A DNA stretch of 64,000 nucleotides from Minisyncoccia bacterium (GCA_050015375.1 JBEKBN010000001.1:34683-98682); one strand, 5' to 3'; counted from the stretch's first letter, positions 24,252 to 55,513 are shown. Numbers and translations are program-made. The notes: generated by a model from the letters alone, not told the origin.

Positions 24252-24800
24252 ATGAATATCAAAGATGTAAAAACAGCAATAAAGGTTGGTGATTTTGTAT
24301 TGAGGAAAAATCATAGAAATAAAATAGATATCAAATATTTATCTAGTTTAAGCAGTGACATACTTACTGATAATTCGGCCAGGGTTTATTTAATAATTCA
24401 AGACGAGATTATTAAGAAAATCGGAGGCTCTGCTTCAAAAGGGGGAATTAAGGCAACAATGGCATTCTATGTTTCAGCCATGGAAGGAAGTCCGGGCGTC
24501 CCCAGGTTTGTTCTTCACCTCCTTATTGAAAGAGCTCTAATTGGCAAATCAAAAATGGAATTATACATGATAACTTCTCCTAAAACACTTGCCAGGGTCA
24601 GTGGCTTATTCGGCTATAAGAAAGTAAAAATTGCAAGTTTTAAGGAGATGGAGGATTTATGCAAATCCGATTATTTTTCGATAGAAAAGAAATATCCCGA
24701 TTGGAATTTCCAAGAAAATCACCAACCGTATCCTCCTGACTTGGCAAAAGAGCATAATTTATACCACCAAAGACGGCTCAAAAATAAACTTAAATTTTAG
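24252..24800 (+). CDS. hypothetical protein (AT-rich gene, convergent with lexA-dam fusion)
   Basis: 182-aa ORF at very low GC; no motif recognised. Confidence 0.35.
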   Translation: MNIKDVKTAIKVGDFVLRKNHRNKIDIKYLSSLSSDILTDNSARVYLIIQDEIIKKIGGSASKGGIKATMAFYVSAMEGSPGVPRFVLHLLIERALIGKSKMELYMITSPKTLARVSGLFGYKKVKIASFKEMEDLCKSDYFSIEKKYPDWNFQENHQPYPPDLAKEHNLYHQRRLKNKLKF

Positions 24801-26328
24801 GTGGACAGAAAATAATTATCTCGTGAGACTCTTTTATGTGATTCCCATTACCATTCCTTCGATTCAATCCTATTCTGGTTTCCCCTTGGCCCATAGTGTA
24901 TTGCCATGAAGGGAAAAGTTGCTGAAATTCCTTGTAATGTTCTTTTATCGTCGGGCAGTTATTATATGAGAGGATGAATCCTCCTTTATGATTTTTTAAC
25001 AAATCTCGCAAATCCTCATGAGGGAATCCCTTATGATGAACAGGTATATTTCTCATCGGATAGATCCCTTTAAACATTTTTGAATCTTTACCTATGTAAT
25101 AAGGGGGATCGCAATACAAAAAATCGTCGGGGTGATCTCTAATGACATCCCTAAAATCCGCACACTCAACTTTAAGATTATTGGGATCAAAATCTCGGAT
25201 ATTTTCAATTGTCCTCTTATATTTTTTGTCATTCAAATAAATGTCAGATGACCAGCCCATAAACCCTGGGCCATATGATAAATTGAAGTTGTAAACATAA
25301 TAGACAGCCAAAGTTAGCGGATCTAGTTTAACTTTCTTTTTCCACACATCATTCAATATTAATCTAATTCTTTCAAATGTTTCCTTGTTTGGTTTCAACT
25401 CTTTCAATTTTTTATAAAGAAGTTTTGGTTTATTAATCTGAAACCCCCAGTAATTACAGAGAATATCAAAAATATCATAACCAATAACTTCCAGGCCGAG
25501 TTCTTTACTCATGGCTATTTCGATTGAACCACCGCCGAAAAACGGTGATACAACCCTTTTTATATTCTCTGGCAGTAACTCAACTATATGACCCACGGCT
25601 AAACTTTTTCCACCCGCATATCTTATGGGGGAAAGAGCAACTCTTTTGTATTTGTTCTGACTGTCCGGATTAGAACTTCTGATACGGTCTAAGAAAGTTT
25701 TTTTTCTGAGCGCTAATGTATTGTTCTTATTGCCATTTTCCAAATTTCTTATAATTTTGATTACGATACCCCGGATCTCTAATTCTTTACGATAGATCGG
25801 CAATATTTCCTGATTTGCCGGTTGTAATCTAAAGCGTCCACTTTCTCGATAGATTTTTTTTAGGGTCGCCTTATCGTCATCAATAATTGCTACTACAGTT
25901 TGACCATCATCGGCGGTTTTTTGCTCACGAATTACCACGGTATCCCCGTCAAATATCCCATCGTTAATCATGCTATTGCCCGACACTCTTAATGCATAGT
26001 GCCTGCCAGCAATTGGAATTTCAGTCTGGGGAATAAAGATATTTTCTCCGTGCATCTCAAGCGCTTCAATCGGTTGACCAGCGGCAATTGTCCCGAGGAG
26101 GGGGATACGGACCAGTTTAGTCGAGGTTTTGACAATTTGAATTCCTCGCGCGCGGCCGTTAGCTTTTTCCAGATATCCCTTGTCCTGCAGGATCATCAGA
26201 TGTTCGTGTGCCGTTGACGGCGAAATCCTAAGTCGGCGGGCAATTTCACGTTCGGTCGGAGCGATGCCTTTTTTTGCGATGACTTTATCCACAAGATCTT
26301 TCACTTGTTTCTGTCTTGGTGTGAGCAT
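24790..26328 (-). CDS. LexA-like repressor (HTH + S24 peptidase) fused to Dam-type N6-adenine DNA methyltransferase
   Basis: N-terminus MLTPRQKQVKDLVDKVIAKKGIAPTEREIARRLRISPSTAHEHL (LexA HTH). ...VSGNSMINDGIFDGDTVVI...TLKKIY (S24 Ser/Lys dyad). Linker, then SPIRYAGGKSLAVGHIVELLP...SPFFGGGS (motif I) and LYCDPPYYIGK (DPPY motif IV) of D12-class Dam MTases. One uninterrupted 512-517-aa ORF. Confidence 0.65.
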   Translation of the reverse strand: MLTPRQKQVKDLVDKVIAKKGIAPTEREIARRLRISPSTAHEHLMILQDKGYLEKANGRARGIQIVKTSTKLVRIPLLGTIAAGQPIEALEMHGENIFIPQTEIPIAGRHYALRVSGNSMINDGIFDGDTVVIREQKTADDGQTVVAIIDDDKATLKKIYRESGRFRLQPANQEILPIYRKELEIRGIVIKIIRNLENGNKNNTLALRKKTFLDRIRSSNPDSQNKYKRVALSPIRYAGGKSLAVGHIVELLPENIKRVVSPFFGGGSIEIAMSKELGLEVIGYDIFDILCNYWGFQINKPKLLYKKLKELKPNKETFERIRLILNDVWKKKVKLDPLTLAVYYVYNFNLSYGPGFMGWSSDIYLNDKKYKRTIENIRDFDPNNLKVECADFRDVIRDHPDDFLYCDPPYYIGKDSKMFKGIYPMRNIPVHHKGFPHEDLRDLLKNHKGGFILSYNNCPTIKEHYKEFQQLFPSWQYTMGQGETRIGLNRRNGNGNHIKESHEIIIFCPPKI

Positions 26329-26343
26329 ATTATAATTATACAA

Positions 26344-47449: not shown

Positions 47450-48508
47450 TCAATTGGCATTCATCTCTACTGTCTGGGTGAAAATAACCTTGTTGAGGTA
47501 GCTGATCTGGATCGTTTTTTGGCCGGCCGTGTCGCTAATTTTAAAGAAACTGTTATGTTTATAGGGCGTGAACTCAAATGTTGTCGTTTGTCCAGGCGCG
47601 ATGGGTTCAACCAAACCTATTTGTTCGGGGACTTCTTTCGTAAACCCCAGTAAAACGGCTGTCAGTGTTGTATTTGAATCCGAGATCTTTGTACCTGTAT
47701 TTTTTACAGTAACGGTTATCTGCACATCTGGGCTGTTAACTATGGGGTGGGCCGGGTAGACGGTTGCGCTCGTTATGCTTAAATTAACAGAACCGTTTGG
47801 ATTGCTTGTGCTTTGTGGTGGATTGGTTTTGTTTTCCTCGTATGCGAGAGTCGCATCCATGTCAAGTTTCCAACTGCCTCCCTCGCTAATAAAAACCCAA
47901 TCAGCGGTAGTCGGAGCTCCGTTTGTTGCTGTGGTTGTTATGTTGGCAACAATGTTAGCGCCCGATTGAAACACGTTATTCACAGTGATTGACGTACCAG
48001 ACGGAACCAGTTGGCCACCAGAAGTGGAGATTTCATTAGCAGTTTTGGCAGAAACGTATTTAAGAAGAAGGTTGCCATTCCCACTTGAGATGTCCTGGCG
48101 CATGTCTGCGAGTATTGCTTTTACGGCATCTATATTGGTATTTGAGGCATTCGTGGTGGTTGAGGTGCTGGGAGTTGAAGTAACCGTCGGTGTTAAACTT
48201 GATGACGGAGAAACCGATGGTGAATTCGTGATATTTGTAACGGCGGCAATGGGTGATTTGTTGCCAGTTGATTTCCAGTAGAAATAGCCGGCGGCGGCAA
48301 TGATAATAACCAAGACCACGATTATTGAGATGACCAATCCCTTTTTTGATTTCTTTGGAGTATTAACGGTTGAGACATTACTAGACAAAGCTTCCGATAT
48401 TTCACTTTCCGGCCAGCCGGAATTCAAAAGCGCTTGCCTGATCTGTCCATCATTTATTCCCGACCGGCGGCTTTGCGCCACGTAGTCCAAAATTTGTTGA
48501 TTGGCCAT
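47450..48508 (-). CDS. membrane-anchored extracellular Ser/Thr/Asn-rich protein, hypothetical
   Basis: TM LVISIIVVLVIIIAAAGYFYW, then low-complexity PSVSPSSSLTPTVTSTPSTSTTTNASN and beta-rich domains. Confidence 0.45.
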   Translation of the reverse strand: MANQQILDYVAQSRRSGINDGQIRQALLNSGWPESEISEALSSNVSTVNTPKKSKKGLVISIIVVLVIIIAAAGYFYWKSTGNKSPIAAVTNITNSPSVSPSSSLTPTVTSTPSTSTTTNASNTNIDAVKAILADMRQDISSGNGNLLLKYVSAKTANEISTSGGQLVPSGTSITVNNVFQSGANIVANITTTATNGAPTTADWVFISEGGSWKLDMDATLAYEENKTNPPQSTSNPNGSVNLSITSATVYPAHPIVNSPDVQITVTVKNTGTKISDSNTTLTAVLLGFTKEVPEQIGLVEPIAPGQTTTFEFTPYKHNSFFKISDTAGQKTIQISYLNKVIFTQTVEMNAN

Positions 48509-48628
48509 ATCACAATTCTACCACCCTTTGAGGGGGGGGGCAACAATTGAGTTACGAACATCGAAACTTTGAGCGGGTAACGGGAGTCAAACCCGTATCT
48601 GATTCTTGGCAAGAACCCATAATAATCG

Positions 48629-49309
48629 TTATACGATACCCGCGTTTTTTTCAAATGAAACTTCTTGATATAATTCTATCCAACGCAATATTTTTTGCAA
48701 TAATTTCTTATTATGGACAATAACATTACATACTCCGTTTGATAGTCTTTTTGTCGGATGCCTGCCAACAATAGTAACCGACTTTTTGAATTGTTGCAAC
48801 GGTATAGCAACCAACTTAGACCAAAATCTTTTTTGTATTTCATCGTTTAAATCCGGGTATAAGAGAAGCCGTAAAAATATTTCTTCTCTTGGGATGCTGA
48901 CTGCTTCATGTAGAAATCTGTAAAATATCCTGATCATTCCCGGGTCAGAATTACTGAGACCAACGCTACCATGTTTCAAAATTCTAGCTCCTTCGCCCCA
49001 ATAAAGCATTACGCCGGAGATAAAAAGCGGATCAAATTTCTTGATCTTAAATTCAAGTTCTGCTTCTTTTCTGTATTCCTCATGAATTAAAGCCCATTTC
49101 TTTTTTGTAGCCGCAACCATTAACCTGAGTTTCTTTGGCGAAGAAAAGGAAGCTTCACTCGCGAGTTTGTTTTTTATCTCTTGCGACCAAGATAAATCTT
49201 TAAACCAACCACAAAGCGTGGCAGTAGGAATTCCTAGTTTTCGGGAGATTTCCTTATAGCTTTTATTTTTTCTTCTCAATTCAAGAGCTTTTTCCTTGTC
49301 GTTTCTCAT
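48629..49309 (-). CDS. HTH + LAGLIDADG-like (degenerate, single-motif) homing-endonuclease-like protein
   Basis: N-terminal HTH ...YKEISRKLGIPTATLCGWFKD; LYWGEGAR segment in LAGLIDADG position; paralogue of the 49659 gene. AT-rich; flanks tRNA genes. Confidence 0.4.
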   Translation of the reverse strand: MRNDKEKALELRRKNKSYKEISRKLGIPTATLCGWFKDLSWSQEIKNKLASEASFSSPKKLRLMVAATKKKWALIHEEYRKEAELEFKIKKFDPLFISGVMLYWGEGARILKHGSVGLSNSDPGMIRIFYRFLHEAVSIPREEIFLRLLLYPDLNDEIQKRFWSKLVAIPLQQFKKSVTIVGRHPTKRLSNGVCNVIVHNKKLLQKILRWIELYQEVSFEKNAGIV

Positions 49310-49507
49310 GTTTGTGGATAAGTTATCAAACTGCCTGTTGATAGTATAGATTTATTATACAACGGGGTTCAAAAAATGAAAGTCCGTTTTGTGGATAAGC
49401 CAAAGAGAAAGTGCATAAACGAAAAACCGTCAATTTAATGACGGTTTTTCCGATGTGCCGTGGGTCAAAATTAAAACAGGCAAAAGCTTGTTTTAATTCT
49501 TGATTTG

Positions 49508-49578
49508 TGCCGCGGAGGTGAATCGGACACCTTTCTAATGCTCTTCAGGCATCTGCTTTACCATTAAGCTACCGCGGC
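49508..49578 (-). tRNA. tRNA-Phe (anticodon GAA), unusual T-loop TCCGATT
   Basis: Acceptor GCCGCGG/CCGCGGC, D-arm GCTT-AATGGTA-AAGC, anticodon loop CTGAAGA, T-arm AGGTG-TCCGATT-CACCT (C at position 55), discriminator A. Confidence 0.55.
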
Positions 49579-49596
49579 AATAATTTTGTCGAACTG

Positions 49597-49668
49597 TGGG
49601 CCCAGTAGGAATCGAACCTACTACCTCTTCAATGTCAATGAAGCGTTCTGCCAGTGAACTATGAGCCC
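49597..49668 (-). tRNA. tRNA-Val (anticodon GAC)
   Basis: Acceptor GGGCTCA/TGGGCCC, D-arm GTTC-ACTGGCA-GAAC, anticodon loop TTGACAT, T-arm GTAGG-TTCGATT-CCTAC, discriminator A. Confidence 0.75.
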
Positions 49669-50360
49669 ATACCTATCACTTTGTCATGGTACATTTCACC
49701 AAGATACAATAATTTTCTTTGAATCGCAACATGGCCACATGTGATGACACAGACACCTTTATAGTCAGGATAAGTTTTCCGGCCGGCCGTTCTTTGATCC
49801 ATTGCGACGCCCGTGAAATTTGCAAGCGGAATCTTGAGGTTTTTTGACCAATATCTTTTCATTTTTTCAGGATTTTGATCGGCTCGAAGGTGGAGGGAGC
49901 ATTTAAAATCACAAATGGGGACACCATACATTTTCTTTAATGCGGTTATAAAGAATTTTAGTATTTTTAAATCGGAATTTCCCATACCGGTTCCCACGCC
50001 TTTTTTCATTCCTTCGCCGAGGTATAGAAAAGATAACGCTAATTCAAGTATATTTAAATTAGAAACGTCTATTTCTTTTAAAGAATCCTCCGCCTCTTTC
50101 TTGGCTTTTTCTAATCTGGCTTTTTTCTGGGCGTTATGCCAAAGAACCGCTTGCATCCTTGCTGTATCAAGTCCTTTTTGCGAATTTGCCGCTAATATTT
50201 CCTTCTGTTTCTTAGTTAGATTTATCTTTCTAAACCAGCCACTCAGAGTCGAACGAGGGATACCAAACTCGTGTTCAACTTTTGTCATAGATATACCTTG
50301 CCGTCGCATCGCTAAAGCGGATTCTTTCGACTTGTACCACCTTGATATCATAATATACAT
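49659..50360 (-). CDS. HTH + LAGLIDADG-like homing-endonuclease-like protein (paralogue of 48629 gene)
   Basis: HTH ...VEHEFGIPRSTLSGWFRK; ILELALSFLYLGEGMKKG LAGLIDADG-like block; RYWSKNLKIPLANF ~ RFWSKLVAIPLQQF in the paralogue. 3' end overlaps the first 7-10 nt of tRNA-Val. Confidence 0.4.
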   Translation of the reverse strand: MYIMISRWYKSKESALAMRRQGISMTKVEHEFGIPRSTLSGWFRKINLTKKQKEILAANSQKGLDTARMQAVLWHNAQKKARLEKAKKEAEDSLKEIDVSNLNILELALSFLYLGEGMKKGVGTGMGNSDLKILKFFITALKKMYGVPICDFKCSLHLRADQNPEKMKRYWSKNLKIPLANFTGVAMDQRTAGRKTYPDYKGVCVITCGHVAIQRKLLYLGEMYHDKVIGMGS

Positions 50361-50476
50361 TATAACATCGGTAATACGGATGAACAATCTAGTTATCAAC
50401 AAAAAACAGCAAACCGCTGTTGTGTAGAAAACAAAACTAATAACTAGTTTCGAGCTAATAATAATTTTGTGCCTAT

Positions 50477-50728
50477 TTATTCGGCAACTAAGACCGATCC
50501 TTCTTTGGCTTTTTGGGGGAGTTCAACTGCAACCTCTTCGCCTTTTTTGCCGCCTTTCACATTTTCATGGTTGACCTGGATTGAATTGATCGTGGCATCA
50601 AATTCATCTTCCCCGTGACGGACTTTCACGGCGTCACCAATTTTAAGAGGCGCCGACAATCTCACAACCGCCACTTTTATCTTATCGTACCAATGGATCA
50701 CTATGCCGATTTCTTTTTCTTTGGCCAT
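50477..50728 (-). CDS. small hypothetical protein
   Basis: 83 aa from internal ATG (MAKEKEIGIVIHWYDKIKVAVVRLSAPLKIGDAVKV...). The longer track ORF would run through tRNA-Leu. Confidence 0.35.
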   Translation of the reverse strand: MAKEKEIGIVIHWYDKIKVAVVRLSAPLKIGDAVKVRHGEDEFDATINSIQVNHENVKGGKKGEEVAVELPQKAKEGSVLVAE

Positions 50729-50764
50729 GATTATACGTTGAACAATTTTTTGATAAATCGACCT

Positions 50765-50849
50765 GTGCGCGGGAGAGGATTCGAACCTCCATGGACTTAC
50801 GTCCGCCACCACCTCAAGATGGTGCGTCTAACCAGTTTCGCCACCCGCG
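50765..50849 (-). tRNA. tRNA-Leu (anticodon GAG), long variable arm
   Basis: Acceptor GCGCGGG/CCCGCGC, long D-loop, anticodon arm CCATC-TTGAGGT-GGTGG, variable arm CGGACGTAAGTCCATG, T-arm GAGG-TTCGAAT-CCTC, discriminator A. Confidence 0.7.
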
Positions 50850-50855
50850 CATTAA

Positions 50856-51578
50856 CTATACTGAACTTGCAATATTATGTAAATTATCAACCCGTAAAGC
50901 AGAATATATTTTTTTAAACTTTCTTTCAAGCCTTGGCCCTGTTGCGTTGTGGTAAACCCTCTCAATTAAAATTTTAGCTTCTTTTTTTGCGTATTTCAAT
51001 TGATATGCACGACATGTCTTATTGTAGTAATCTATATGTCCGTGAACATTGCATAATGCCATTGTTCTGTCTCTGAGCCATTTTAAATGATTTAAACTTG
51101 CAGACACAAACGATAGATAGAACAAGAAACTCGAAGCCCAGCGCTTATCCCAATAAGAATAAAAACTTCCGTCACCGTCCAAACAACCCCTGAGAAAATC
51201 GAAGTAATACTTATCCGGGATATCCAATTTTCCTAATATTTTTGATTTCGCTGGCATTAAACCAATCGAAAGTAAGAAATTATAGAAATTTTTATCTGTG
51301 AATTGCACGAAGTAATATTTTCGCTCCGGAGCAAAGCCGCTTTTCTTTAGGCACACCTTGCTATTTATTCCAAGGCATTTTTTAAATGTATCAATTTGGT
51401 CAATATCTTTTGACACAAAAACCATTGCCCTTCCATTTTTTGACAAGTTGCCATCTGTCGCAATTAGGCCTATAGCATACGCAAGTTTAGCTGACCATTC
51501 AGTAGATGTTCGTTTGAGCATCTTCATGCCATAATTATAACTCAAGCGGAAGCGTATAGCAATGCTCCCATTTAACAA
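50856..51578 (-). CDS. double-motif LAGLIDADG homing endonuclease
   Basis: Motif 1 LAYAIGLIATDGNL; motif 2 FLRGCLDGDGSF. 240 aa; ends 7 nt from the tRNA-Leu 5' end; AT-rich. Confidence 0.75.
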   Translation of the reverse strand: MLNGSIAIRFRLSYNYGMKMLKRTSTEWSAKLAYAIGLIATDGNLSKNGRAMVFVSKDIDQIDTFKKCLGINSKVCLKKSGFAPERKYYFVQFTDKNFYNFLLSIGLMPAKSKILGKLDIPDKYYFDFLRGCLDGDGSFYSYWDKRWASSFLFYLSFVSASLNHLKWLRDRTMALCNVHGHIDYYNKTCRAYQLKYAKKEAKILIERVYHNATGPRLERKFKKIYSALRVDNLHNIASSV

Positions 51579-51593
51579 CCTAACTGGGTAACT

Positions 51594-52013
51594 TTATTTT
51601 TCGGCTTCTTGAGAAGAGGGTTCGGATTCGGTCCGTTGGCCAACAGATGGTTCAATGATCTTCACTTTCCGGCGGGTTTCGCGGGCGGACTTGGTGCGAA
51701 GATAATAGAGTTTGGCTTGTCGGACTTTGGAAGTTTTAGCTATCTCAAATTTTTCAATTGTCGGCAGATGCAACGGAAAAACCCGCTCCACTCCAATGCC
51801 GTTAGAAACTTTCCGGACAGTGATGGTTGCATTGGGTCCGGAGCCGTGTTTGCGAGCGATGACCATGCCCTCAAAAACCTGAACCCTGGTTTTGGCGCCC
51901 TCCTTGATGCGCTGGTGGACTTTCAGTGTGACTCCGGGCCGGATATCCGAAAACGCGCTTCCTTTCGGATCGGTGGCGGTTGTTTTCGTATTGAATGTTT
52001 GAATCTGATCCAT
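51594..52013 (-). CDS. rplS: 50S ribosomal protein L19
   Basis: [91 protein letters not shown]; ATG 52013 checked. Confidence 0.85.
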
Positions 52014-52056: not shown

Positions 52057-52866
52057 TCAATTTTTTGGCAAATTGTCCAAAAAGTTTTGTAATTCCGGCG
52101 GCAGGTCGGTTTCAAGGGTCAATGCTTCGCCAGATGGCGTTCCCCCACTACCAACATTTTGGTGTGGGGGTAAAGTGAATGATAGTTTTTGAGCGTGAAG
52201 AAAAAGCCGTCCAAGTTCGGGCGGACAGCCTTCGCTCGATTTCGAGCTTCGGCGAGGCGAAGACAAACTGGAACCATAAAGTTGATCACCGACAATCGGG
52301 TGGCCGATGGATTTCAAGTGGATTCTGATTTGATGGGTGCGCCCTGTTAGAGGTCTTACCTCTAACAGGGTAAAGCCGGTAAACTCTTTTTCAACTTTAT
52401 ATTCGGTGACCGCTGATTTTTCTTTTAAGTCCCTTTTACCGTGAATTTGGGTGGTTTGTTTGGTGCCAATCTTGCCGATAGATGTTTCGATTCTGCCGGA
52501 TTCTTTTTTCATTTGGCCGACGACTAGAGCAATATATGTTTTCTTGATCTTGTGTTCTTGAAATTCTTTTTTCAGATAATCAAAAGCCGGCTGGGTTTTG
52601 GCAATTATCATCAAACCTGACGTCTCTTTATCTAGACGATGAACGATTCCTGGCCGCAAATCAACCCATTGGCCGAGCATCTCGCCATGTTTATCGGTGA
52701 CATTTTTGATCTCCGGATATTTTTCCAAAACCCAACTGACCACGCTTTCCGAGGTATCCGTCCGATTGACCGGATGCGTCAAAAGCCCCGATGGTTTATT
52801 GATGACCATTAAGTCATCATCCTCGTAAACAATTGAAATGTGAGATAATTCTGGTATCATGTTCAT
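52057..52866 (-). CDS. RluA-family 23S rRNA pseudouridine synthase (RluD-like)
   Basis: [16 protein letters not shown] (catalytic Asp) and [18 protein letters not shown] motifs. The conserved LLEVRPLTG is encoded by a perfect 12-bp palindrome. Confidence 0.85.
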
Positions 52867-53292: not shown

Positions 53293-53297
53293 AATTG

Positions 53298-53371
53298 TGC
53301 GCGTGCCTGGACTCGAACCAGGGACCCCGTCTTTATAAGAGACGTGCTCTAACCGACTGAGCTACACGCGC
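53298..53371 (-). tRNA. tRNA-Ile (anticodon TAT; reads AUA)
   Basis: Acceptor GCGCGTG/CACGCGC, D-arm GCTC-AGTCGGTTA-GAGC (Ile-like), anticodon arm CGTCT-CTTATAA-AGACG, T-arm CCTGG-TTCGAGT-CCAGG, discriminator A. Confidence 0.6.
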
Positions 53372-53689: not shown

Positions 53690-55513
53690 TTATGCCTTGA
53701 CCAATTCGTAGAACTCTTTTTGCTCGATGGTCTCTTTTTCCATGAGAACCCCGGCAATGCGCTCAAGAATTTCCATTTTTTTTGTCAGAACCTCTTTAGC
53801 TTTTTTGTGGCCATTCTCAATCAGACGGCTTATTTCGGAATCAATGAGATTAGCTGTGGCTTCGGAATAATCATGATCGGTATTGAGGTCTTTGCCCAGA
53901 AATACCAATTCTTCTTTTTCGCCGAAAGTCACCGGCCCGATCTTCTCCGACATGCCGTATTGGGTGACCATTTTTCGGGCAAGTTCGGAAGCGACTTTGA
54001 GGTCGTTGGCGGCGCCGGTGGTCAGCTCATTGAATTTTAATTGCTCGGCGGTATAGCCGGCAAGTAAGATCGCCAACTCGGATTCAAATTCCGAACGTGA
54101 ACGCAAATGTTTGTCCTCGGTCGGCAATTTCAGAGTATAACCGCCAGCTCGGCCGCGCGAGACGATCGAGACTTTGTGGATCGGGTCGGCGTGAGGCACC
54201 GAGACCGTGACCAAAGCATGGCCGGCTTCGTGAAAAGCGGCGATATTTTTTTCTTTCTCGCTGAAAATGTGCGACCGGCGCTCGGGACCGAGAATGACCT
54301 TTTCAATGGCTTCGAACAAATTGTCCTGGGTAATTTCTTTTTGATTTTTTCTGGCGGCCAGGATCGCGCCTTCATTTATCAAATTTGCCAGATCAGCGCC
54401 GGAAAATCCGGGTGTTCTTTCGGCGACCTTGCGAAGATCAATGCTTTTGGCCAAAGGTTTGTCCTGAGCGTGGATCTTCAAGATCGCTTCGCGGTCGTTT
54501 ATCGAGGGTTCGTCAAGAATTATCCGGCGGTCGAAACGGCCTGGTCGGAGCAAAGCCGGATCAAGAATATCGGGCCTGTTAGTTGCCGCAAAAATGACCA
54601 CCGCTTCGTCGGTGCCAAAACCGTCCATCTCGACAAGGATCTGATTCAAAGTTTGTTCGCGCTCGTCATGGCCGCCGCCAAGTCCGGCCCCGCGATGTCG
54701 GCCGATGGCATCTATCTCGTCAATAAAAATTATCGAAGGCGCGGTTTTTTTCGCCGTTTCAAAAGTATCGCGGACACGTTGGGCGCCGACGCCGACGAAC
54801 ATTTCCACGAATTCAGAGCCAGAAACATAGTAGAAAGGGACAGCGGCTTCGTTAGCGACAGCTTTGGCCAGGAGCGTTTTGCCCGTGCCTGGGGCGCCGA
54901 CAAGTAAAATTCCCCGCGGCATGCGGGCGCCAAGTTTTTGGAATCTCCTCGGATCGCGCAAGAATTCAACCATCTCGTTGACCTCTTCCTTGGCTTCCAC
55001 CAAGCCGGCCACATCCTTGAAAGTGATCTTCTTTTTTCCGTCACCCTCGCCGCCGGCGATCTTGGCTTTTGATTTGCCGAAGGAGAAGGCCGTGGCCGCG
55101 CCCCGCTGGGCCTGGCGGAAAAAGAACCAGAAGATCAACAGAACAAAAAGAAAAGGCAGAACGATGGGTAGTACATTCGTCAAAAAAGCGGTCAGTCCCG
55201 ATTCATTTTTGATCTCAACATTAACCGCCGCCAATTTGGTTTTGTCGGCGCCAAGATTGGTCAAGCTGTCGCCGACGCCGACTCCGGTTTCCTTTTTGGA
55301 GGCCTCCTGGGTGTTGTCGTTGAGAACGATTGTGAGGTTGTCGGTCTGGACGGAGATACTTTTAACTTTGCCATCATTGATCTGGCCGACGACCGTGCTC
55401 AAGGTGACATTGCTGACTTTGCTTGCCGGCGGGGATTGGAAAAGCGCAAAAACCCCCGAAACGACGATCAGTATGACGAAAACTATAAGGATGTATTTGA
55501 TAAGGGATCTCAT
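53690..55513 (-). CDS. ftsH: ATP-dependent zinc metalloprotease FtsH
   Basis: TM anchors; Walker [16 protein letters not shown]; Walker [10 protein letters not shown]; SRH; zinc-binding HEAGHAL. Confidence 0.95.

Follow-up and report, generated by a model that had tools for sequence, protein, structure and literature searches.

Putative homing-endonuclease-type cassettes, each coupled to a single tRNA gene, in a Minisyncoccia bacterium

Three open reading frames (ORFs) that alternate with tRNA genes in a 64,000-nucleotide (nt) stretch of DNA from a Minisyncoccia bacterium (GCA_050015375.1, JBEKBN010000001.1:34683-98682; this whole stretch is called the window below, and positions are counted from its first nucleotide) are probably selfish cassettes of the free-standing homing-endonuclease type, independent of one another and with a single gene apiece, and each would have one tRNA gene as its specific target. 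The targets would be tRNA-Leu(GAG) for ORF3, tRNA-Val(GAC) for ORF2 and tRNA-Gly(GCC) for ORF1. An earlier note on this DNA had described the region as a tRNA cluster interleaved with three homing-endonuclease-like genes, and ARAGORN, Rfam and the ORF calls confirm that layout. The interpretation given there is partly supported: repeated invasion of the locus holds, the LAGLIDADG identity of two helix-turn-helix (HTH) proteins is unproven, and there is nothing intron-like. The coupling of the ORFs to specific tRNA genes, the overlap with tRNA 5′ ends beyond that of ORF2 with tRNA-Val, and the presence of a displaced tRNA 5′ half upstream of ORF3 were not part of the earlier note.

The three cassettes and their tRNA genes

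The cassettes and the tRNA genes that follow them are listed here in the order of transcription.

51534-51576, minus strand: relic of a displaced tRNA-Leu 5′ half, with TATAAT
50856-51527, minus strand: ORF3, 223 amino acids, two-motif LAGLIDADG protein
50765-50850, minus strand: tRNA-Leu(GAG), intact (ARAGORN, Rfam)
50359-50401, minus strand: ORF2 promoter region
49659-50351, minus strand: ORF2, 230 amino acids from the family-consensus ATG at 50351 (the frame is open from 50402)
49596-49668, minus strand: tRNA-Val(GAC), intact (ARAGORN, Rfam)
49313-49398, minus strand: ORF1 5′ region
48629-49309, minus strand: ORF1, 226 amino acids
48571-48643, minus strand: tRNA-Gly(GCC), intact (ARAGORN; Rfam in a sensitive run)

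The ORF3 stop codon lies 5 nt before the start of tRNA-Leu(GAG) (the earlier count was 7 nt). The last 10 nt of ORF2 overlap tRNA-Val(GAC), an overlap that had already been noticed, and its TAG stop codon constitutes positions 8-10 of that tRNA; the last 15 nt of ORF1 overlap the 5′ end of tRNA-Gly(GCC), and its TAA stop codon is inside the tRNA-Gly D-loop. All three ORFs are AT-rich relative to their surroundings, as had been remarked (GC content 0.34-0.40 versus 0.44-0.52). With the Rfam tRNA model the scores of the four tRNAs are 46-66 bits; tRNA-Gly(GCC) has 49.3 bits in the sensitive run and was not reported with default filters. The sensitive Rfam scan of 48400-51700 (E ≤ 1) found only these four tRNAs, with no interrupted tRNA and no intron family. 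The earlier hand folding of four tRNAs without introns is borne out by this result, and nothing points to the intron-like homing that had been suggested as one possibility.

When compared with its closest relative (locus L006; L-numbers denote fetched related loci), the window tRNA-Gly(GCC) has A19 for G19 (changing the D-loop sequence from CGG to CGA) and T56 for C56. The two substitutions seem to compensate for each other within the G19-C56 tertiary pair, and the same CGG to CGA change also makes the TAA stop codon of ORF1.

Each family is tied to one tRNA gene

Related loci were fetched with subfamily alignments (a mixed ORF1 and ORF2 alignment was too diverse), giving ORF2 relatives in 80 species-representative genomes from many Parcubacteria and Microgenomates lineages, ORF3 relatives at 80 metagenome loci and ORF1 relatives at 8 loci. 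In the ORF2 family a tRNA-Val(GAC) gene on the same strand begins between -36 and +33 nt from the stop codon in 77 of 80 cases, and two of the three exceptions are contig ends. ORF3 relatives are followed at -59 to +27 nt by tRNA-Leu(GAG), or by Leu(CAG) or Phe(GAA) in lower-scoring sub-branches, at 75 of 80 loci, and the other five have no more than 93 nt to the contig end. The ORF1 family has tRNA-Gly(GCC) at -15 to +32 nt. Such adjacency in 77/80 and 75/80 loci that were fetched independently is more than a chance arrangement. The coupling of ORF2 to tRNA-Val is kept whatever lies upstream, be it tRNA-Leu(GAG), tRNA-Ile(TAT), tRNA-Thr or an AIRS-domain gene. The modal layout of this family (51 of 85 loci) is the 10-nt overlap seen in the window, with the stop codon formed by U8-A9-G10 (TAG) of the tRNA, and the C-terminal tails of many family members are translated tRNA 5′ ends. 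More distant ORF1/ORF2 paralogues precede tRNA-Ile(TAT), tRNA-Ser(CGA) and tRNA-Trp, the last of these being frameshifted. The earlier note had named relatives at non-tRNA loci as a finding that would speak against its view; the families were found at tRNA genes, and this is clearly no refutation.

Some members of these families that are frameshifted or truncated still stand before their tRNA (L031 7828-8503, before tRNA-Trp(CCA), and L179 2983-3765 and L123 306-767, both before tRNA-Leu(GAG)); they are candidates for decaying cassettes. LAGLIDADG_3 sub-branches of the ORF3 type lie before tRNA-Phe(GAA) or tRNA-Leu(CAG) in place of tRNA-Leu(GAG) (L061 4042-4905, L164 and L176; L148, L149, L156, L165, L171, L177 and L178), with L061, L164 and L176 being the cases before tRNA-Phe. 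These sub-branches suggest target switching within the LAGLIDADG_3 family. The sole clear exception to tRNA adjacency is a distant ORF1-like paralogue (L010 6508-7197; 104 bits), which is followed by a NUDIX gene, with tRNA-Phe 413 nt downstream.

Empty sites and independent divergence

Empty sites in related genomes, a check proposed in the earlier note, were found, and they have the same gene order: rplS followed by tRNA-Leu, the small ORF followed by tRNA-Val(GAC), and tRNA-Phe followed by tRNA-Gly, in each case with no cassette. In relatives without ORF3 the distance from rplS to tRNA-Leu(GAG) is 2-32 nt, and tRNA-Phe and tRNA-Gly are 14 nt apart in L010. An occupied and an empty site could be aligned directly, and the ORF2 insertion is bounded on its left by a terminator-like hairpin. 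For an unbiased estimate of occupancy, counts were restricted to loci that had been fetched through a different family. On this basis the tRNA-Leu(GAG) site is occupied in 1 of 16 cases, the tRNA-Gly(GCC) site in 3/13 and 1/9, and the tRNA-Val(GAC) site in 0/6 and 0/6, so each site is filled in 0-25% of the genomes sampled without regard to it. The window, in which all three are filled, is an extreme and unusual case. The families thus display what is expected of homing genes, a fixed target site together with presence or absence among related genomes.

The pairwise identities of ORF2 or ORF3 correlate poorly with those of the linked genes rplS, RluD and FtsH (Spearman rho 0.05-0.25), whereas the correlations among these housekeeping genes are 0.35-0.63. 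In some pairs ORF2 is more similar than FtsH; for example, loci L037 and L051 are 77% identical in ORF2, 57% in FtsH and 43% in rplS. As judged from these pairwise identities, ORF divergence appears decoupled from that of the linked housekeeping genes, which may reflect horizontal movement. The repeated invasion by free-standing homing-endonuclease-type genes proposed earlier is upheld by the empty sites, the fixed tRNA site and this decoupled divergence.

Displaced tRNA halves upstream of the cassettes

Upstream of the ATG codon in 45 of 79 ORF3-family loci, the window among them, lies the motif (T)TGGTAGACGC-N5-8-TTGAG, in most cases 12-40 nt before the ATG. It corresponds to the D-loop, the 3′ strand of the D-stem, the 5′ strand of the anticodon stem and the anticodon of tRNA-Leu(GAG). 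As a control, the same pattern matches 27 of 66 genuine tRNA-Leu(GAG) genes and gives 6 background matches in 842 kb. A test of each locus against its own tRNA under-detects these relics (11/62 compared to 45/79 by the motif). A fuller 5′ half is apparently kept in L100, L102 and L162 as judged by eye, although the L100 alignment spans positions 7-26 only. In the window the relic (about 51576-51541) aligns with tRNA-Leu 5′ halves, and the similarity stops right after the anticodon; its best-preserved part, from the D-arm to the anticodon, is GCTATACGCTTCCGCTTGAG at 51560-51541, which ends with ...TTGAG. It begins about 17 nt past the rplS stop codon, which is the position of tRNA-Leu in relatives without ORF3.

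In the ORF2 family a first search, by strict scoring against the tRNA of each locus, flagged 15 loci, 11 of which were discarded as simply neighbouring tRNA genes (Ile-TAT, Ile-GAT, Thr and Leu). The remaining four of the 80 loci (L050, L032, L052 and L053) have fragments of the tRNA-Val 5′ part, which are not recognized as tRNAs by ARAGORN. Those of L050 and L032 end at the anticodon (...CTTGA and ...CTTGAC, respectively) 31-32 nt before the ATG, whereas in L052 and L053 the fragment extends to about position 26-27 and its end is 59-60 nt from the ATG. Five further loci (L025, L028, L040, L048 and L054) carry acceptor-plus-D-arm fragments about 100 nt upstream. A possible tRNA-Val fragment upstream of ORF2 in the window, TTAGCTCGAA, was not significant and was dropped.

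The duplicated part of the tRNA is thus the 5′ half and not the 3′ part. The simplest explanation for recurrent breaks just past the anticodon, followed by an ORF whose end leads into an entire tRNA, is insertion into the anticodon loop, with a new 5′ half supplied and the old one left behind. The D-arm part of the ORF3-family relics is more uniform across loci than the D-arms of the resident tRNAs, and their anticodon-stem strand differs from that of the resident tRNA in 39 of 39 loci, being no closer to it than in random pairing; the relic therefore seems to travel with the cassette or to be selected with it.

The location of the break, at about positions 36-38, is also the one used by group I introns in the tRNAs of bacteria and by the tRNA introns of archaea, and the ORFs might accordingly be remains of intron-encoded endonucleases from anticodon-loop group I introns whose RNA has since been lost. 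That CPR (Candidate Phyla Radiation) rRNA genes are rich in LAGLIDADG-encoding introns (PMC11270868) would fit such a history. We consider it very improbable, as no intron RNA was found in the region with Rfam, the downstream tRNAs are complete genes and not 3′ exons, and the ORF lies directly against the 5′ end of an entire tRNA.

Cassette promoters and DnaA-box-like motifs

In the ORF3 family the D-loop of the relic supplies TTGGTA, 17-18 nt before a TATAAT that directly follows the TTGAG, and the ATG is about 7 nt further on. The window ORF3 has TTGCTA-17-TATAAT at 51562-51534 (TATAAT at 51539-51534), 7 nt before the ATG at 51527. The relic and the adjoining TATAAT are thus predicted to form a sigma-70-type promoter for ORF3. 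Over 82 loci the 5′ region of the ORF2 family reads cTTGAC(a/t)-17-TATAAT-7-ATG, and the conserved TTGAC is the exact end point of the anticodon-terminated remnants in L050 and L032. The window ORF2 has a -35 sequence TTGTTC (50387-50382), at the place taken in relatives by the cTTGAC with which their tRNA-Val remnants end, and an extended -10 sequence TGtTATAAT (TATAAT at 50364-50359), with the ATG at 50351 again 7 nt on. The 5′ region of ORF1 contains a promoter-like TTGAAC-18-TATACT at 49372-49343. The TATAAT-7-ATG spacing implies that the mRNAs would be leaderless and would be translated as such. Co-transcription of the ORFs with their tRNAs is likely, since no terminator lies between them.

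Sequences resembling DnaA boxes are frequent near these promoters. Two exact copies of the consensus TTATCCACA, at 49313-49321 and 49390-49398, flank the promoter-like element of the window ORF1, and ORF2 has a version with one mismatch, TTATCAACA, at 50393-50401. With up to one mismatch allowed, TTATCCACA is about 10-fold enriched just upstream of cassette promoters (the background is 0.037 per 120 nt). It is present at -60 to -41 in 29 of 82 ORF2-family loci, and 7 of 8 ORF1-family loci have two boxes each, one of which abuts the ATG. The 64-kb window holds six exact boxes where about 0.5 would be expected. This enrichment could indicate DnaA-linked or autoregulatory control. Two of the exact boxes, at 26285 and 26370, were considered as a sign of another cassette, and this was rejected because they belong to an unrelated LexA-methyltransferase gene region; there a 517-amino-acid ORF (24790-26343, minus strand) is, from its sequence, apparently a LexA-like repressor (HTH plus S24-type peptidase region) fused to a Dam-like N6-adenine DNA methyltransferase.

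The encoded proteins

ORF3 is a canonical two-motif LAGLIDADG protein by sequence. The earlier description of it as a double-motif endonuclease stands with respect to both motifs, LIATDGNL and CLDGDGSF, which have their acidic residues, and to a match with phrog_4645 “endonuclease” (E=1.1e-26); the nuclease activity itself is predicted. The corresponding family motifs LAYAIGLIATDGNL and FLRGCLDGDGSF are invariant in 26 family members. ORF3 also matches the homing endonuclease of PDB entry 2dch (E=1.2e-3), and the family has 2701 matches. As a LAGLIDADG endonuclease ORF3 would be expected to cleave DNA site-specifically, leaving 4-nt 3′ overhangs. The Pfam searches that had been proposed for the three proteins were informative for ORF3, which scores 21.6 bits with PF14528 (slightly below the 22.5-bit cut-off; most of its homologues have precomputed PF14528 matches), and gave no LAGLIDADG match for ORF1 and ORF2, to which ORF3 is unrelated in sequence.

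ORF1 and ORF2 are paralogues, as had been supposed (30% identity, E=3e-24), and the exact ORF1 sequence has a database entry, in which it is called a hypothetical protein and is assigned to a Minisyncoccia (CPR/Patescibacteria) bacterium. Their superfamily is very large, with 6273 clusters (at 50% identity) at E ≤ 1e-3 and 3643 at E ≤ 1e-10. The N-termini match HTH domains of the transposase type (HTH_SB, HTH_23, CENP-B_N and psq; up to 29 of 37 members, best E 1e-5). The C-terminal ~130 residues, which have conserved LYxGEG, NSDP, D153, W163 and GVC, form an alpha/beta domain without a match to Pfam, NCBIfam or PDB sequence models; a profile search of ORF1/ORF2 against PDB sequences returned HTH matches only. 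AlphaFold2 models have pLDDT values of 89.9 for the whole ORF1 protein and 92.6 for the C-terminal domain. Foldseek comparison of both models with the PDB gave no match at E < 1e-3, and no LAGLIDADG protein is in the top 50 for the C-terminal domain; YfiB, IspF and RidA were among the matches and were dismissed as weak and generically alpha/beta.

The earlier note had called these two HTH proteins LAGLIDADG-like. None of 37 family members matches a LAGLIDADG Pfam family at E ≤ 10. In profile-profile comparison hhalign places the ORF1/ORF2 LYxGEG...NSDP...F..L on the LIATDG...SKD...F..L of the ORF3 family, and this is non-significant (P=0.63 and 0.052). The best superpositions of the C-terminal domain in a viral structure library have template-modelling (TM) scores of 0.40-0.45 and root-mean-square deviations of 3.4-4.6 Å over 107-124 columns, all with E ≥ 0.08, and these weak matches include several homing endonucleases and large presumed intein proteins (one of which is annotated as such). 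The C-terminal domain is possibly a very divergent LAGLIDADG-like domain; the label is a lead and not a result, and is unproven.

Given their HTH domains, ORF1 and ORF2 could also be small site-specific transposases or recombinases, with an HTH like those of Tc1/mariner, IS630 and IS3 elements, that move by cut-and-paste or with a long staggered cut, in which case the second copy of the tRNA 5′ half would have arisen as a target-site duplication. Their best N-terminal matches are indeed HTH_SB, HTH_Tnp_1, CENP-B_N and an IS3 transposase NCBIfam model, one JGI record calls a homologue “transposase”, and the presence of a 5′ half before as well as after the ORF is reminiscent of a direct repeat. 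Such an origin seems quite improbable, however, since neither Pfam nor Foldseek detected a catalytic domain of the DDE, serine or tyrosine kind, terminal inverted repeats were not noticed, and a 36-nt target duplication would be unprecedented. In addition, the relic stem is unlike a fresh duplication in its difference from the resident tRNA at all 39 loci, and the same architecture is made by a LAGLIDADG family, a group known for double-strand break and repair.

The resident gene neighborhood

The genes between and around the cassettes are as follows.

53690-55513, minus strand: FtsH
52057-52866, minus strand: RluD-like gene
51594 to about 52013, minus strand: rplS, resident gene
50477-50728, minus strand: small resident ORF, 83 amino acids
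50405-50421, minus strand: terminator-like hairpin 3′ of the small resident ORF, the left limit of the ORF2 insertion
49507-49578, minus strand: tRNA-Phe(GAA), resident, with no cassette in the window (ARAGORN, Rfam)

The full order of transcription, all on the minus strand, is FtsH, tRNA-Ile(TAT), tRNA-Val(TAC), the RluD-like gene, rplS, ORF3, tRNA-Leu(GAG), the small ORF, ORF2, tRNA-Val(GAC), tRNA-Phe(GAA), ORF1 and tRNA-Gly(GCC). The lack of the trmD, rimM and rpsP partners next to rplS had been thought noteworthy; it is no anomaly, since the arrangement in which rplS is preceded by the RluD-like gene, two tRNAs and FtsH is the usual one in the lineage of the window. The small ORF is kept in relatives without ORF2 (L003 and L013) and is not part of a cassette. 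The tRNA-Ile(TAT, i.e., UAU) gene at 53297-53371 adjoins tRNA-Val(TAC), and its position is conserved in the CPR relatives examined (L001-L017). In the close relative L013 an apparent intein (PF14890 plus a faint LAGLIDADG_3 match; L013 1-1384) lies inside FtsH, and is by its domain matches a further endonuclease-type element in the same neighborhood.

How the cassettes might move, and what weighs for and against it

The arrangement of relic, promoter, ORF and complete tRNA can be accounted for if the cassettes move by homing. The cassette protein would cut a cassette-free tRNA gene within the anticodon loop or beside it, at about positions 36-38, an activity that ORF1 and ORF2 would have to share with ORF3. 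Repair of the break from a cassette-bearing copy would then bring in the -10 box and the ORF together with a new 5′ half of the tRNA, placed directly at the stop codon or overlapping it; the right repair arm would be the tRNA 3′ half and the left one the relic or the 5′ half. The downstream tRNA would hence be complete and functional. The old 5′ half would stay upstream as the relic, its D-loop and anticodon region serving as the -35 box and spacer of the cassette promoter, and the tRNA would from then on be transcribed through the ORF.

Several observations weigh against this explanation. The intact downstream tRNA recreates the presumed target, which leaves self-immunity unexplained, and the anticodon loops and stems show no systematic difference between occupied and empty sites. 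The relic anticodon-stem strand equals that of the resident tRNA in 0 of 39 loci, which fits immunity through stem divergence and plain decay equally. The similarity of the tRNA 5′ and 3′ halves does not track ORF similarity differentially (rho is ~0 for both). Relics of tRNA-Gly were not found in the ORF1 family (8 loci, 2 of them usable), and most ORF2 loci keep only a -35-like TTGAC that is indistinguishable from an ordinary -35 box. No nuclease domain is recognizable in ORF1 and ORF2 with Pfam, NCBIfam or Foldseek against the PDB. Finally, the families are very large (2701 matches for ORF3; 3643 clusters at E ≤ 1e-10 for ORF1/ORF2), and more than 95% of their ORFs have stayed intact; this intactness speaks against a purely selfish element, because a long-fixed one would be expected to decay. 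Continued homing might keep the ORFs intact, as might a function for the host, for instance autoregulation.

The last point leads to the possibility that ORF1 and ORF2, and perhaps ORF3, are domesticated host regulators that control transcription of the downstream tRNA, or couple it to replication through the DnaA-box-like motifs, and that are inherited mostly vertically and repeatedly lost. The intact ORFs in many CPR classes would be natural for such genes, as would an HTH without a recognizable nuclease domain, the roughly 10-fold enrichment of TTATCCACA in the 5′ regions and the dependence of the tRNA on what is now a cassette promoter; the synteny of the ORF1 family is, moreover, unchanged in Yanofskybacteria and Paceibacterota relatives. 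On the other hand, a regulator is not expected to be absent from so many genomes as the 0-25% occupancy implies, to diverge independently of the housekeeping genes (with ORF2 exceeding FtsH in similarity in some pairs), or to be AT-rich. Insertion events are evident from the displaced tRNA halves, the identical layout is found in a bona fide LAGLIDADG family that has its catalytic residues, and one regulator per tRNA gene is not likely in a reduced genome. We regard domestication as unlikely, and favor selfish homing cassettes.

More tentatively, and with rather more room for doubt, the cassettes may belong to a large class of “tRNA-half replacement” homing elements in CPR bacteria, characterized by cutting in the anticodon loop, an imported 5′ half, a displaced half that acts as the promoter, a stop codon within the tRNA (U8-A9-G10) and throttling by RNase P. 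At least two protein families would have adopted this way of life, and in one of them a transposase-type HTH may be joined to a nuclease domain with a new fold. The role of RNase P is speculative: its cleavage at the tRNA 5′ end would strip the stop codon from mRNAs of the ORF2 and ORF1 types.

Relation to known systems

The phage T4 gene segB encodes a free-standing GIY-YIG homing endonuclease within the T4 tRNA cluster; its recognition site holds a conserved tRNA motif, and it drives the inheritance of itself and the neighboring tRNA genes (PMC2330249). The window cassettes resemble SegB in being free-standing endonuclease-type genes among tRNA genes. Unlike them, SegB is a phage protein, belongs to the GIY-YIG and not the LAGLIDADG type, and recognizes the T-psi-C stem-loop and not the anticodon loop; nor does its gene have a fixed place 5′ of one isoacceptor, an overlap with a tRNA or a displaced half as its promoter. 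The LAGLIDADG endonucleases of CPR rRNA insertion sequences, such as I-ShaI, lie in group-I-like introns of 16S and 23S rRNA genes and are mostly single-domain homodimers (PMC11270868). They share with the cassettes the bacterial radiation, the enzyme superfamily of ORF3 and a massive proliferation in stable-RNA genes, but the window has no intron, ORF3 is a double-domain protein, and its host gene is kept intact by duplication of the 5′ half.

Some free-standing homing endonuclease genes of fungal and algal organelles reportedly duplicate part of their host gene, as in the case of Allomyces atp6. There too, it is said, the endonuclease gene brings a replacement for the target piece and the displaced piece is left nearby as a pseudogene fragment; the targets in those cases are reportedly 3′ ends of protein-coding genes, whereas here the target is a tRNA 5′ half and the relic is a promoter. 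Elements with tyrosine integrases also target tRNA genes, with crossover in the anticodon loop, and carry a partial tRNA copy that keeps the gene functional. They have in common with the cassettes the tRNA gene as the target and the copy of part of it, but they depend on an integrase, span kilobases and exchange the 3′ part of the gene; the cassettes replace the 5′ part, are ~0.8 kb with a single ORF, and have no integrase domain that Pfam, NCBIfam or phrog scans of their proteins could find. The domesticated regulator WhiA, whose host gene is conserved and present in a single copy, combines two degenerate LAGLIDADG domains with a C-terminal HTH. ORF1 and ORF2 may likewise combine a LAGLIDADG-like domain and an HTH in one small bacterial protein; they differ from WhiA in having an N-terminal HTH, one domain of unproven fold, a retained acidic residue and a patchy distribution. 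None of the SegB, CPR rRNA intron, organellar or integrase precedents combines an anticodon-loop target, replacement of the 5′ half, a relic promoter and a stop codon inside the tRNA. In the full-text literature, the coverage of which was incomplete, endonuclease cassettes linked to tRNA genes of CPR bacteria were not found described, and this is absence of evidence only.

Homing endonuclease genes usually spare their host by sitting in introns or inteins. The cassettes appear to have a third way of being harmless, which is to invade an essential stable-RNA gene while carrying a spare part for it. The scale is considerable, with thousands of homologues over many CPR classes and each subfamily tied to one isoacceptor gene, and would explain a large family of “hypothetical” CPR proteins. 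Some tRNA genes of these minimal genomes would now be transcribed from the promoters of selfish elements, and the proteins are candidate nucleases with tRNA-gene specificity for use in engineering. Introns in tRNAs and the divisions of split tRNA genes occur just after the anticodon; if our reading is true, the cassettes represent a present-day process that breaks tRNA genes at exactly that position, and could make the idea that mobile elements have shaped fragmented tRNA genes directly testable.

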